This document shows positions 12,615-40,077 of a stretch of DNA of 64,000 bases, piece by piece. The position numbers were made by a program, and so were the translations under genes. This DNA is from Eledone cirrhosa (taxonomy: Eukaryota), in contig OZ024742.1 in the NCBI GenBank assembly GCA_964016885.1, positions 240,932,001-240,996,000 of the forward strand. The letters are read 5' to 3'. The first letter of the stretch is position 1. Every line of letters starts with the position of its first letter. The notes below the pieces were generated by a model. That model searched no databases, was not told the DNA's origin, and saw only the letters and a program-made list of their open reading frames with translations.

Positions 12615-12898
12615 ATATAAGATCAAAGGATGGTTAAAAGAGTTCCATGTATTTTATTATGCGCATTTCAAAAACAAATATCATCATGAGATGACATTTG
12701 CGTTTTCGTCACATAAAATAGGGAGACATGATATGAAGGTTAAAAAAGTGCACTATTCACAAGTGTTTTTTAACCTTCATATCATGTCTCCCTATTTTAT
12801 CTGACGAAAACGCAAATGTCATCTCATGATGATATTTGTTTTTGAAATGCGCATAATAAAATACATTGAACTCTTTTAACCATCTTTTGATCTTATAT
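12615..12898. repeat. Fold-back unit with paired hammerheads (12793-12863 +, intact; 12649-12720 -, core GTGACGA)
   Basis: ~133-bp inverted arms. tattttat CTGACGA aaac-gcaaatgtcatc tcat gatgatatttgt-tttt GAAAT GCGC ATA ataaaata. Confidence 0.85.
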
Positions 12899-13287
12899 AT
12901 TTATACATATATATATATATATATATATATATATATACACATAGACGCCATGGTCGCAAGTTTTGCGATCGATGTACTGTACATCTACCAAAGATTGTAA
13001 ATCTATCATAGATATTAAGCTCTTCTAGCGCGTCACCCTCACCAACCCCTGGGGAAACGCCTTCTCTATGATGTCCGCCGGAGCCGCGGGGCAGCCACCA
13101 CGTGAGCGCCCATTTGCTTATAATAGTGAGAGGTGGGGCGAGCGGGAGAGACGGAGTGAGTGACAGTGGGAGTTTGGTTCCATTGTGTTTGTACCTGGTG
13201 TATATATATATATTTATTTACCACACTACAATATAGACATCGCAGTATTCCCCATCTAAGTTGTAGATATTAAGCACAATCAATAAT

Positions 13288-13473
13288 TGTTTCTACTTTA
13301 GGCACAAGGCCAGCAAATTACCCAGTGCATTACTGGTACTTTATTTTATCGACCCCGTAAGGATGAAAGGCAAAGTGAACCTCGGCGGGATTTGAACTCA
13401 GATCGTAAAGGGACGTAACTATGCTAGAAAGCATGGCGTCCGACATTCTACCGATACTGCCAATCCACCGCCC
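13288..13473 (-). mobile_element. SINE with 18-bp TSD ttaagcacaatcaataat
   Basis: TSD at 13270-13287 and 13474-13491. Confidence 0.9.
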
Positions 13474-13765
13474 TTAAGCACAATCAATAATATTATCAGG
13501 AGTCATAATAGCGAACTAATTCTACCGTCCTTTGATAGCCTTGCCTACTCTACAGTTTGTTGCATCATATGGCAGAAGAGGGATGGCAGGATAATAGAAA
13601 TATCACAAGAAACTTGAGCACAATCACCCCAGTACTCATTCTCTGTGCGATTGTTGCTGAAAAGTATTATGTATAAAATCATAGAAAATTAATTAACCCA
13701 TACTAATATAATTCTGCTCTTGCGGTGTCCTGGTAAAGTTTGGTGGCAATTTTTTTCAAATCTAA

Positions 13766-14369
13766 TAATTGTTTCTACTTTTGGCACAAGGCCAGCAATT
13801 ACGCAGTACATTACTGGTACTTTATTTTATCGACCCCGTAAGGATGAAAGGCAAAGTTAACTTCGGCGGGATTTGAACTCAGAATGGAAAGGGCCGTAAC
13901 TCTATGCGTCAAAGCATGACGTCCGACCCTCTACCGATACTGCCAATCCACCGCCATTCCACCGCCCTTTTTTCAAATCTAATAATTGTTCTACTTTTGG
14001 CACAAGGCCAGCAATTATCCCAGTGTATTACTGGTACTTTATTTTATCGACCCTGTAAGGATGAAAGGCAAAGATAACCTCGGGGGGATTTGAACTCAGT
14101 CCGTAAAGGGACGTAACTGTGCTGCAAAGCATGGCGTCCGACTGCCAATAATGATTTCTAGTATAGGCACAAGACCAATAATTTGGGGAGGAGGGGAAAG
14201 TCGGTTAAATCGACCCCAGTGCGTGACTGGTACTTTATTTTATCGACCCCGTAGGGATGAAAGGCAAAGTTAACCTAGGCGGAATTTGAACTTAGACCGT
14301 AAAGGGCAGTAACTCTATGCTGAAAAGCATGGTGACCGATCCTCTATCGATACTGCGAATCCACCGCCC
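13766..14369 (-). mobile_element. Three tandem SINE copies
   Basis: SINE consensus x3. The target ttttcaaat(c/t)taataat recurs at ~13752, ~13969 and ~14369. Confidence 0.85.
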
Positions 14370-14938
14370 TTTTCAAATTTAATAATAGATTCTCTAAACA
14401 CACACACATACACACATACACCCACGCACATACAGGCACTCACTCACTCACTCACTCACTCACTCACACACAAAAGAAGTAAGACCAAAGACTGGTGATT
14501 TTTCCGTAACAATAATAACTCCTATACCGAGTAGATGGTGGCAACAGTTTTGTTGAAAAGTTGTGTTGGCAAGCTTGATGAGTCTTACGGTTTACTTGCG
14601 TTCTTTTGTATTTTATATGCCAAAATTTATTAGTGTTGATATTAAAAAATATATAATTGTAGAATATTTGATTAATTAAGTGAAATATGCATAAAATAAA
14701 AACCGTCTCTTGTTGCAATTCAAACAATATTAGATATTCAGTTTATATATGCAGAACAATTCGTATAATTTCCGATTGGCAGTCCGCATAATGTATGGAA
14801 ATAGTCTAAAGTTGTAATATTTTTTTTTAGTCATATCTTCTACACACACACATAAAGACACAAACAGGCGCATACACACACATAGACGCGCGCACACACA
14901 TATTTAAAATTTGATTTAAGACTAGTTTTTATCAGCAT

Positions 14939-15352
14939 TGGATTGGCAGTATCAGTAGAGGGTCGGACGCCATGCTTTGCAGCATAGAGTTACGGCCCTT
15001 TATGATCTGAGTCCAAATCCCGTCGAGGTTAACTTTGCCTTTCATCCTTACGGGGTCGATAAAATAAAGTACCAGTCACGCACTGGGGTCGATTTAATCG
15101 ACTTTCCCCAATGTTGCTGGCCTTGTGCCTATAGTAGAAACCATTATTATCATTATTAGTGGATTGGCAGTAACGGTAGAGCGCCAGACAGACACCATGC
15201 TTTGAAGCATAGAGTTATGGCCCTTTACGTTCTGAGTTCAAATCCCGCCGAGCTTAATTTTGTCTTTCATCCTTACGGGGGTCGATAAAATAAAGTACCA
15301 GTAATGCACTCGGATAATTGCTTGCCTTGTGCCAAAAGTAGAAACAATTATT
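14939..15352 (+). mobile_element. Two tandem SINE copies
   Basis: SINE consensus x2 separated by attattatcattatt. Confidence 0.85.
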
Positions 15353-37215: not shown

Positions 37216-38310
37216 TTTGTATATGTATATATATATACATACTATATATTATATATATATATATATAAATATATATATATATATATATATATATATATAT
37301 ATATATATATATATATATATATATATATATATATATATATATATATATATATATATATATATATATATATATATATATATATATACATATATATATAATA
37401 TATACTATATATACATACATATATATATATACTTGTAGTAGCGTAGAGACTAAAGTACACATTAGCTCTAGAAAACCAGTGATATGTTTGCGTGATTTAC
37501 GTTTCAATAGATTTATAAAATGTTTACTCATTAAAGTATGTTGTCACGTATTTATATCAAGCTAAATAAACAGACACAAACTCATGACAAGTGAAAAAAA
37601 GAATAGCTAAAACAAAGTGTAAAAGGAAAACTGTGACAACAAGAAACAAACAAAAACACGTAAGCGACAACTATTTTCTTAATGAATATATGAATGAATG
37701 AATAAAACAGTATAAATAAGGACTCTAGAGATATTTTTTATAGAAATCGTATAAAGGAAGTGTATAAATAAATATTACATAGAAATACTTTAAATATAAT
37801 ATTCACAAAAAGATGTGCGTGTTTATTTGTAGTATGCTTATGCACATATATTTATTAGTTGAAACGATTTTAACGCATTCAGAATATATTTTTATGTTCT
37901 TCACCTCGCCATCAAGCTTAAAACAGCTTATCATAGCTATCATAGTCTACGAACCCCGCCTAAGTCTATATAGACTTTGCCAAATAAATGTTGTATTTTC
38001 TGTATAAAGTGCACGAAATGTTATTGTTTTGTTGTTGTTGTTGATGATGATGATGATGATGACAACAAAAGTAATATCATTAAAGACAATATTAACAACG
38101 AGAAGGGTGTTATTCTGTAGAAATATAGGCACTAAGATCCAGCTAACATTACTGGTTGGGAGACATTCAAATTAATCTGTGTTGCTAATAGAGAGAGAGA
38201 GAGAGAGAGGATATATATATATCAGAAAGGGTGTGGGAAAATACCAGGTGGACCATAACACACCAGAGTACTCGATACTTAGGGTAGTAGAGTGGGTAAT
38301 ATGAAAAGAC

Positions 38311-38385
38311 TGAGGACCCCGACAGCTGAGCTCCGGCCGTTTCGACAACTAAATCTAGCTGTCGAAACGCCCGGAGCTCAGCCTT
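38311..38385. repeat. Hairpin made of a duplicated hammerhead 3' half
   Basis: GTTTC-GACA..TGTC-GAAAC symmetry; minus strand reads GAAACGGC..GCTGTC ggggt. Confidence 0.6.
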
Positions 38386-39532
38386 CCTGAATGCTGAGCA
38401 GATACCATGATAGCCTAGAGATTGATTCTGACACAGCCTTTCTAATTTGGCCAACATCTTTATAACACACACACATTTTATTTTACTTGATTTTTCATTT
38501 GTTTTGTTTTCTTCACCTTATTGCCTTATATTTAAGTTGAGAATGGTTATAACACACACACTCTTTATTTAATTATCTTATTTCGTTTTATTCTTTTACC
38601 ATCTTGTTCCTCCTACCACTTTATCCAACATCTTTCTGACCTTGAGATTGGTTATAGCACACACACATTTTATTTTATTTGAATCTTTCCTTCTATTTTC
38701 CACTTTCCATTCTCATATTTCATTTTTCATTTTTCAATTTCCATTTTCATTTTTCTTTTCTGATCTTTCATTTTTCATTAATTAATTTTTCATTTATTGT
38801 CTATTTATTATTTATTTTCTGTTTTCTTCATTTTATTACCTTCCATTTCTTCTATACATGGCAGAAACCCCCTTCTTCATATACATGGCAGACCCCCCCC
38901 CCCCCCACCACCACCACGAGAGATGGTGGCAGGATGGGTGAAGAAACACACACAGATGCTTATAAATGTCAGCAGCAGCAAGACATAGACTGACCAAAAC
39001 ACCAACAACACTACCAACTTAAGGGTAGAGATCAGATGTACTTAACAATAGCAAAAACAAACACTAGGGAACCTCACTTCAGAAAGAATTTCTATAGACT
39101 TTTGACTGAGGAATGCTCTCAAAACTGACCAATGGGAAGATTGAACTTACACATTTTTATAACATTGAGATTGGTATAACACACACACATTTTATTTGAT
39201 TATTTTATTTGGTTCCTCTGCCACCTTATTCCTTCTACCACTTTATCATTTTTTGAGCTGACTCTAAAACCGACACCACTACGAACATAAGAGTAGAGGT
39301 CAGATGTACTTAGCAATAACAAGAAAAACCACTACAGATGGCCTTGCTTCAGAATGAATTTCTATAGAATTCTGACTGAGAAATGTTCTCACAACTGACC
39401 AATGAGAGATGATGTCCTTTGACACTGAAATTCGTTTGTTTAAATTCATATGATTCCAGTTCCTCAATGAAACAACAACCCAACCAGGAACTGGGCATAT
39501 CAGATGTGTACTCGTCTACCACACTAATTCGG

Positions 39533-39587
39533 ACTGCCTGAAGAGGTCACAACCAAAGATGGCTGTCACCGAAATATATATAGCAGT
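39533..39587 (+). ncRNA. Hammerhead ribozyme at the end of a repetitive pLTR-like block (38440-39630)
   Basis: actgc CTGAAGA ggt-c-aca-a-cca aaga tgg-c-tgt-c-acc GAAAT ATAT ATA gcagt. Confidence 0.85.
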
Positions 39588-39710
39588 AATAAACGAAGCC
39601 AAATTTTAAACATTTGACTTATTTATTTTATTTTATTTTATATATATATATATATATATATATATATATATATATATATATATATATATATATATAATAT
39701 ATATATATAC

Positions 39711-40077
39711 TAATAAAAGGAATTCCAACTTTGTCTGATTTACTCGTTTTATTTACAATCCTTAAAATTATAATGATATTATAATGATATTATAATGGTA
39801 TTAAATGTTAAATGTTAATTGAACAAGTACTTTCATGCTTTCGCAATCTTCAGGTTCATATTCAGTGGTGACAGTCAAGTTTGCAATTTTCAACTGTGAA
39901 AATTGCAAACTTGACTGTCACCATTGAATATGAACCTGAAGATTGCGAAAGCATGAAAGTACTTGTTCAATTAACATTTAATATTCTACCATACTATTTC
40001 ATTATAATATCATTATAATTTTAAAGGATTGTAAATAAAACGAGTAAATCAGACAAAGTTGGAATTCCTTTTATTAA
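39711..40077. repeat. Fold-back unit with two intact opposite-strand minimal hammerheads (39820-39858 -, 39931-39969 +)
   Basis: tgaac CTGAAGA t-tgc gaaa gca-t GAAAG TA CTT gttca; symmetric about ~39894; (TA)n flanks. Confidence 0.88.

Follow-up and report, generated by a model that had tools for sequence, protein, structure and literature searches.

Head-to-head pairs of hammerhead-bearing Penelope-like element ends as probable insertion products in a 64-kb window of the Eledone cirrhosa genome

Introduction

The subject of this study is a set of six fold-back (hairpin) units, U1 to U6, in a 64,000-nucleotide stretch of Eledone cirrhosa DNA (GenBank assembly GCA_964016885.1, contig OZ024742.1, positions 240,932,001 to 240,996,000 of the forward strand), hereafter the window, an AT-rich animal DNA dense in microsatellites. 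These units are very probably one-off insertion products of Penelope-like elements (PLEs). Each would be a head-to-head pair of hammerhead-bearing PLE 3' ends, by sequence match in two cases and as the likely reading in the other four. Their structure has already been described, and the units add members to it: published accounts already cover inverted pseudo-long terminal repeats (pLTRs), tails, insertion into (TA)n and hammerheads paired on opposite strands (PMC3846280, PMC8557442, PMC4209133). A first-pass annotation made from the letters alone had placed mirrored ribozyme pairs in these hairpins and read them either as snap-back products of PLE reverse transcription or as self-propagating units.

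Layout of the fold-back units

Fold-backs were located by self-BLAST of the window, and the two arms of each were compared as matches, mismatches and gap columns (Table 1). All six of the hairpins that had been proposed were recovered, with arm identities ranging from 83 to 100%. Every one of them is arranged head-to-head, the hammerhead or its remnant pointing outward on each arm and the 3' ends lying outside, and their flanks are not mirrored. A one-sided tail is recognised by homology in U1, U4 and U2 and by position only in U3 and U6, and none was seen for U5, which contains an inner hairpin at 21169-21261. The right extension of U2 is common to a copy at 18248, the probable tail of U3 lies on its right side and reaches ~19060, and the right-hand extension of U6 covers ~35 nt before (TA)n begins. 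Regarding the target, eight of the 12 unit ends, picked by eye for this count, lie at most 15 nt from a run of (TA)6 or longer, against a background of 3.9% of positions. The proposal that the units are inserted in (TA)n applies to both ends of U1, U4 and U6 and to one end of U2 and U3, and fails at both ends of U5.

Table 1. Positions of the fold-back units, their hammerheads and the related elements in the window (arms given as matches/mismatches/gap columns)
Feature	Position	Strand	Details
U1, fold-back, head-to-head pLTR pair	12606..12906		loop ~7-18 nt; arms 138/4/2
U1 one-sided tail	12524..12605	-	~82 nt, terminates at (TA)n; aligns to corresponding E1 stretch
U1 hammerhead	12801..12855	+	minimal type I, intact core, palindromic helix III; descriptor
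U1 mirror hammerhead	12658..12712	-	C3G core change, predicted inactive; descriptor
U2, old fold-back	17154..17955		loop ~40 nt; arms 206/26/17; (CT)n/(GA)n within arms
U2 hammerhead-like remnants	~17814-17851; ~17250-17285	+; -	decayed, recognised by eye
U3, fold-back	18661..18943		loop ~13 nt; arms 124/9/4
U3 hammerhead-like motifs	18889; 18715	+; -	U4C and unpaired 15.2-16.2 on both arms
U4, perfect fold-back of putative Hydra-type pLTR	19148..19515		loop 4 nt; arms 181/0/2
U4 one-sided tail	19516..19602	+	~87 nt, then (TA)n; matches 32034-32121, 59147-59237
U4 hammerheads	19416-19465; 19198-19247	+; -	intact; descriptor
U5, decayed fold-back	20925..21480		~70-nt arms, ~360-nt spacer; arms 70/6/25
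U5 minus-strand hammerhead	20949-21008	-	core boxes intact, helix I absent
U6, fold-back	39710..40077		loop 4 nt; arms 172/7/6
U6 hammerheads	39936-39964; 39825-39853	+; -	U10.1-U11.1 mismatch, CUU triplet
E0, 5' part of Hydra-type ORF	~1-792	-	disrupted
E1, partial-tandem copy preceding E0	within 1..3591	-	pLTR hammerhead 986-1034; inverted copy 2949-3591
E2, 5'-truncated Hydra-type PLE	32034..36601	-	ORF pieces 33537-34553, 34513-35211; reverse transcriptase piece and endonuclease
E2 parts	within E2		3' untranslated region; hammerhead 32171-32220; tail 32034-32121; inverted tail-less copy 35205-36601
E3, Neptune/Nematis-type PLE	23674..29713	-	reverse transcriptase + GIY-YIG frame 24940-27294; inverted 3' copy 28335-29673
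U4-family insertion	58982..59237		tail-less inverted arm (~170 nt) joined to tail alone; inversion without duplication
Family F, non-coding hammerhead unit	10342..11853; 3828-4364; 20228-20793		~430 nt; tandem and head-to-head forms

Source of the arms

The arms of two units can be traced to PLEs within the window itself. Taken with its tail, the U4 arm aligns to E2 with z 64.8 and to E1 with z 36.5, and in E0/E1 the U4-family stretch continues into the start of an open reading frame (ORF), which identifies this stretch as a pLTR. On this match, the U4 arm is the hammerhead-bearing 3' repeat of the Hydra-type PLE in the window. The arm and tail of U1 score 91 against E1, with a shuffle maximum of 49 (z 12.2), so that U1 is identified by sequence as a distant relative of the same pLTR. 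The earlier assignment of the units to different families is thus only partly right, as U1 and U4 are related. Marks of the Hydra clade are RW(K/R), DKT, a CxCX5C linker and an endonuclease with CxxC and CxH, and its families target (TA)n (PMC8557442); RWR and DKT are found in E0, and CxCX5C, CxxC and CxH in E2. By their anatomy, U2, U3, U5 and U6 are likely PLE end pairs as well.

The ORF-bearing PLEs at 851, 23674 and 32034 are themselves head-to-head like the hairpins, with longer spacers and with the tail or extension on one side. Their inverted 3'-end copies measure ~650 nt (E1), ~1,400 nt (E2) and ~1,350 nt (E3), separated by spacers of 1.4-3.3 kb, and the hairpins form the short end of this length series, with a spacer near zero. 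It is this shared layout, together with the match of U4 and U1 to a Hydra-type pLTR, that upholds the idea of PLE by-products. E3 contains a 784-aa stop-free frame with reverse transcriptase (RT) and GIY-YIG domains (RVT_1 and GIY-YIG in Pfam) and a 377-aa frame upstream; a protein search returned 854 homologues of its protein. Its hammerhead has a U3-A8 core, with an identical GAAA-box change on both arms, and its short arm bears an extension of ~40 nt.

Two further sets of copies display the same architecture in other forms. In the U4-family insertion at 58982 neither arm contains the other, and the tail-less arms of U4, E2 and this copy have a common endpoint beside (TA)n. In family F, two copies keep an intact minimal hammerhead, there are three distinct inversion junctions, and the head-to-tail joint is identical at 10842/10843 and 20651/20652.

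Inverted repeats within a TA context could also suggest miniature inverted-repeat transposable elements (MITEs) derived from a TA-targeting DNA transposon whose terminal inverted repeats are long. MITEs are recognised by the terminal inverted repeats of a DNA transposon and a fixed length; the arms described here match elements with RT and GIY-YIG domains, bear hammerheads, end at varying inner positions and have a tail on one side. The MITE reading is largely refuted for U1 and U4, and for the units as a whole it is very improbable.

Hammerhead motifs and folding

Hammerheads were sought with a custom descriptor of the minimal type I motif, and 30 block-wise dinucleotide shuffles of the window served as control. 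The motifs far exceed chance: 13 with an intact core occur in the window and 0 in each of the 30 shuffles, and with one core change allowed the numbers are 15 and a shuffle mean of 0.1. A search of Rfam with E up to 1 gave no hammerhead among the 150 of 229 matches listed, only microRNA look-alikes. Among the 12 arms, the core is intact in five (the plus arm of U1 and both arms of U4 and U6), one (the minus arm of U1) carries C3G, a change that abolishes hammerhead cleavage (PMC11167929), and six are variant or decayed, including the plus arm of U5, a decayed remnant read by eye. The proposed mirrored pair, with one hammerhead per strand, is consequently intact in two of the six units, U4 and U6; it is impaired on one arm of U1, and in U2, U3 and U5 the motifs are variant or decayed. 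In U6, the U10.1-U11.1 mismatch corresponds to a hammerhead variant already on record (PMC3088659). Helix III of the hammerheads is short and palindromic, and PLE hammerheads of this kind work weakly as dimers (PMC4209133).

This U10.1-U11.1 mismatch, located at the helix II base, is common to several unrelated hammerhead families (4060, 5770, 18418, 20218, 20526, 21008 and 39936). Single intact minimal hammerheads also stand at 39538-39582 and 5740-5770, just within (TA)n-bounded ends, and neither is repeated elsewhere in the window.

The units had been compared to ambisense viroid-like RNAs. Viroids and ambisense viroid-like RNAs form circles with imperfect pairing, and their plus and minus strands differ. 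The rod fold and the ribozyme on each strand are similar, but the units are genomic palindromes, and transcription of a palindrome in either direction yields one and the same RNA, each strand having a single cut site, so that no monomer could be released, unlike in retrozymes. In the four units folded (U1, U3, U4 and U6), helix II pairing amounts to 0.67-0.98 in the lone arm versus ~1e-15 or less in the full unit, where forcing it costs 23-47 kcal/mol, and the ribozyme is predicted to be locked within the rod. The likeness is accordingly not sustained. Circles of an ambisense viroid-like or retrozyme-like kind, processed by both ribozymes, might be imagined from the intact cores on both strands of U4 and U6 and from the rod-like fold. 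Such circles are hardly credible in view of the missing unit-length monomer, the cost of helix II, the four of six units that lack an intact hammerhead pair, and the behaviour of minimal PLE hammerheads, which are inactive as monomers and of low activity as dimers (PMC4209133). Any read-through RNA would form long double-stranded RNA (dsRNA), which the first-pass annotation had put forward as a potential ADAR or siRNA substrate. The arm mismatches display no ADAR-type skew, with 11 G-U versus 11 A-C, which are small numbers.

Junctions and public reads

All 13 junction 30-mers are unique in the window with up to four mismatches allowed, and the four Hydra-family and three family F junctions are every one different. 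A 26-base arm pattern had 0 matches in metagenome_contigs and 0 in viral_contigs. Two public runs of restriction site-associated DNA (RAD) contribute 40,233 and 45,181 reads on 32034-33030, starting at an SphI site (32374) and ending at AATT sites, and in these public reads the Hydra-type family is abundant and strongly 3'-biased. At 32114, 5,330 of 40,233 and 6,039 of 45,181 reads pass from the element into a (TA)n consensus, and this exit point coincides with the tail-less end of U4, E2 and the 58982 copy. Since RAD reads start at the SphI site, those over 32304 derive from copies longer than U4. The two arms of E2 agree at 18 of 19 variant positions tested (taken from 40 of 310 listed) and share alleles at three positions where at least 97.8% of reads differ; because these rare alleles are shared, both arms would come from one source.

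The RAD joints were also considered as a census of hairpin centres, a use that was rejected as the reads are blind to U4-type centres. Among the 15 of 16 RAD joints listed, 11 join opposite strands, with at most 65 reads per run and 1-5 starts, and these may be ligation chimeras. In the contigs of run X1 (1,381 million letters), one opposite-strand joint is listed, which is not the U4 centre; as contigs drop rare variants, they speak only against a high-copy centre.

These data bear on two alternatives. The first one, a fold-back artefact of assembly or library, could invoke the almost perfect arms of U4 and E2 and the U4 junction that is not seen among the read joints listed. The unmirrored flanks and the divergence of the arms, which affects five of the six units, argue against it, as do the one-sided tail and the tail-less end, a family-wide boundary in public reads, and we give an artefact almost no weight. 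The second is that PLE proteins re-mobilise some of the hairpins as intact non-autonomous elements, which keep their centre. The retention of RT start regions at both ends, the youth of U4 (0 arm mismatches) and the unusual ribozyme changes common to both arms of U3 and of U6 would fit re-mobilisation. No centre is shared among the 13 window junctions, however, the X1 contigs contain no opposite-strand joint at the U4 centre, a perfect 180-bp rod would be a poor RT template, and editing skew is absent from the arm mismatches, all of which makes re-mobilisation improbable. The notion of self-propagating units thus finds no support, none of the 13 junctions recurring within the window. The best candidates for it would be U4, U6 and U3, as strand-symmetric, non-coding palindromic retroelements re-inserted whole by a PLE protein, whose arms would mask each other's ribozyme and whose transcripts would feed a loop of dsRNA, editing or small RNA acting on the parent PLE family, a scenario to which we attach little probability.

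Proposed origin of the hairpins

A model for the origin of these inserts can be drawn from the Poseidon PLE of Anolis, to which they are likened here. It has been demonstrated in vitro that the Poseidon protein, a predicted dimer, cleaves AT-rich DNA on both strands and extends each of them, that reverse transcription has two neighbouring internal start sites on the RNA, the distance between them setting the tail, and that ribozyme cleavage is dispensable (Frangieh et al. 2024, PMC11167929). Poseidon belongs to a different clade, and the parts of that paper covered derive no head-to-head products from it. In the window, the two strands of a (TA)n target, once cut, would each prime reverse transcription, in an event occurring once per insertion. 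The distal RT site would extend one target strand and the proximal site the other, on a template consisting of one RNA or of RNA from one locus, and both cDNAs would stop early and then be end-joined. Similar stop points would produce near-perfect hairpins (U4, U6, U1 and U3), unequal ones would leave a long spacer (E1, E2 and E3), and stalling of the distal cDNA would result in inversion without duplication (58982). The inserts would then be dead and decaying, with the ribozymes as passengers masked by the antisense arm, the first to be transcribed on either strand.

Such twin priming explains the fixed outer ends, the variable inner ends, the one-sided tails and the 58982 copy. It is preferred over pure snap-back because the outer ends of the arms fall at two positions fixed for the family and because the arms of 58982 do not contain one another. 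The whole account, twin priming included, is one that we favour with reserve, at a confidence well below that given to one-off PLE insertion as such. In the snap-back or self-priming alternative one cDNA folds, is copied back and joins the other target end, which would still leave a one-off PLE product. An antisense transcript folding on itself was proposed by Arkhipova et al. (2013), and junction palindromes have been read as self-priming (PMC3846280). The tiny loops of U4 and U6, possible microhomologies of a few bases in the junctions of E1 and E2, and arms that are identical and have rare alleles in common are also in its favour. Copying back should nevertheless reach the end of the first cDNA, but arms without a tail end at a constant internal position, and the short arms of 58982 and probably of E3 hold sequence absent from the long arm. 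Pure snap-back is in our judgement possible but rather unlikely; the earlier proposal of it holds as regards a PLE insertion product, and its pure form is less favoured than twin priming.

Several observations weigh against the account based on PLE insertion and twin priming. Regarding the source of the arms, no partner PLE for U2, U3, U5 and U6 was found among seven pLTR references (best z 2.6-3.9 in 42 comparisons), the suggested Hydra placement of the U4/U1 partner rests on motifs and not on a tree, and the Pfam search of the E0 and E2 ORFs gave no match. With respect to the reads, the runs may come from another species or strain (the best shares 0.57 of words), and the absence of the U4 centre among the 15 of 16 joints listed leaves the U4 junction without independent confirmation. 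As for the mechanism, the alleles shared by the E2 arms are also compatible with snap-back or with conversion between the arms, and the ~4-nt loops of U4 and U6 need cDNA stops within a few bases of each other, for which snap-back is simpler. Deletion of one arm from a hairpin could account for the 58982 copy, whose joint has a 3-nt microhomology. In the family F copy at 3828-4364 both arms reach the distal end, and the alignment of the E3 extension to the 31648 family of Neptune-type fragments ended before the extension, so that its tail is unconfirmed by homology.

Relation to known systems

PLE inverted-pLTR insertions regularly include inverted copies truncated at the 5' end, palindromic junctions and a tail on one side only (PMC8557442 Fig. 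2; PMC3846280). The window repeats the head-to-head layout, the palindrome, the optional tail, the partial tandems and the microsatellite targets described there (Arkhipova et al. 2013; Craig et al. 2021), and differs in that the ORF-less extreme is common and in that Hydra-type family tails measure 82-87 nt compared with the 30-40 bp usually quoted for PLEs. In the Hydra clade (Craig et al. 2021) the motifs, the pLTR hammerhead and the (TA)n targets are the same, and Mollusca already figures among its host phyla (PMC8557442); the family is in high copy here, each RAD run having more than 40,000 reads over an end of 1 kb.

In Schistosoma mansoni, truncated PLEs are associated with dual minimal hammerheads that occupy opposite strands at a distance of ~100-700 bp (Cervera and De la Pena 2014, PMC4209133). 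These hammerheads have the same type I motifs with a palindromic helix III, and the U3-A8 core is also present in the window; the host is a different one, and the mention takes one sentence, with centres and tails unmapped in the parts covered. Non-LTR retrozymes (lacking long terminal repeats) are likewise short, non-coding, PLE-derived and provided with type I hammerheads, and family F fits them in part. Their head-to-tail tandems contain two same-strand ribozymes from which circles are releasable (PMC7229834; PMC6765202; bioRxiv 10.64898/2026.07.22.740005), whereas all six units are head-to-head with one ribozyme per strand. Among the open-access papers found, none was seen to explain PLE head-to-head products by twin priming in its title, the opening of its abstract or the parts covered; supplements may list such copies or cephalopod families.

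Other features of the window

Additional PLE sequences include a second Neptune-type 3' fragment at 29685-31820, with a U3-A8 hammerhead at 31648. A copy of this 31648 family at 63358-63458 stops ~60 nt earlier at (TA)n, pointing to a tail for that family. Another PLE fragment (42746-44496, minus strand) has a weak GIY-YIG match. Among PLE-like proteins, P0029, P0059, P0065, P0069, P0081, P0090 and P0118 are filed under bacterial gill symbionts of bivalves and are likely host DNA in those assemblies. Small hairpins at 20019-20078, 38325-38382 and 41585-41676 adjoin (TA)n or close a shared repeat, the repeat families lying at 17053, 38232 and 41623 and at 19925, 23086, 23211 and 63502; no hammerhead in these three hairpins passed the descriptor scan. 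Non-LTR retrotransposon remnants occupy 46738-47183, 48450-50093 and 51733-55817, with an RVT_1 match (E 5.5e-28) at 52631-54655. A repeat of ~190 nt resembling a short interspersed element, which we take to be of the octopus type, has many copies, several of them tandem (6091-6272, 8246-8432, 13282-15355, 22345-22804 and others).

Significance

How PLEs form inverted structures is regarded as an open question (PMC8557442). The importance of the structure lies in the material that it offers for this question: in a genome whose examples are many, young, short and in high copy, tail side, centre and arm containment can be counted, so that twin priming and snap-back become separable. Such counts would link the in vitro result of two start sites to genomic products. 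If transcribed, the inserts would moreover constitute a large source of perfect dsRNA.

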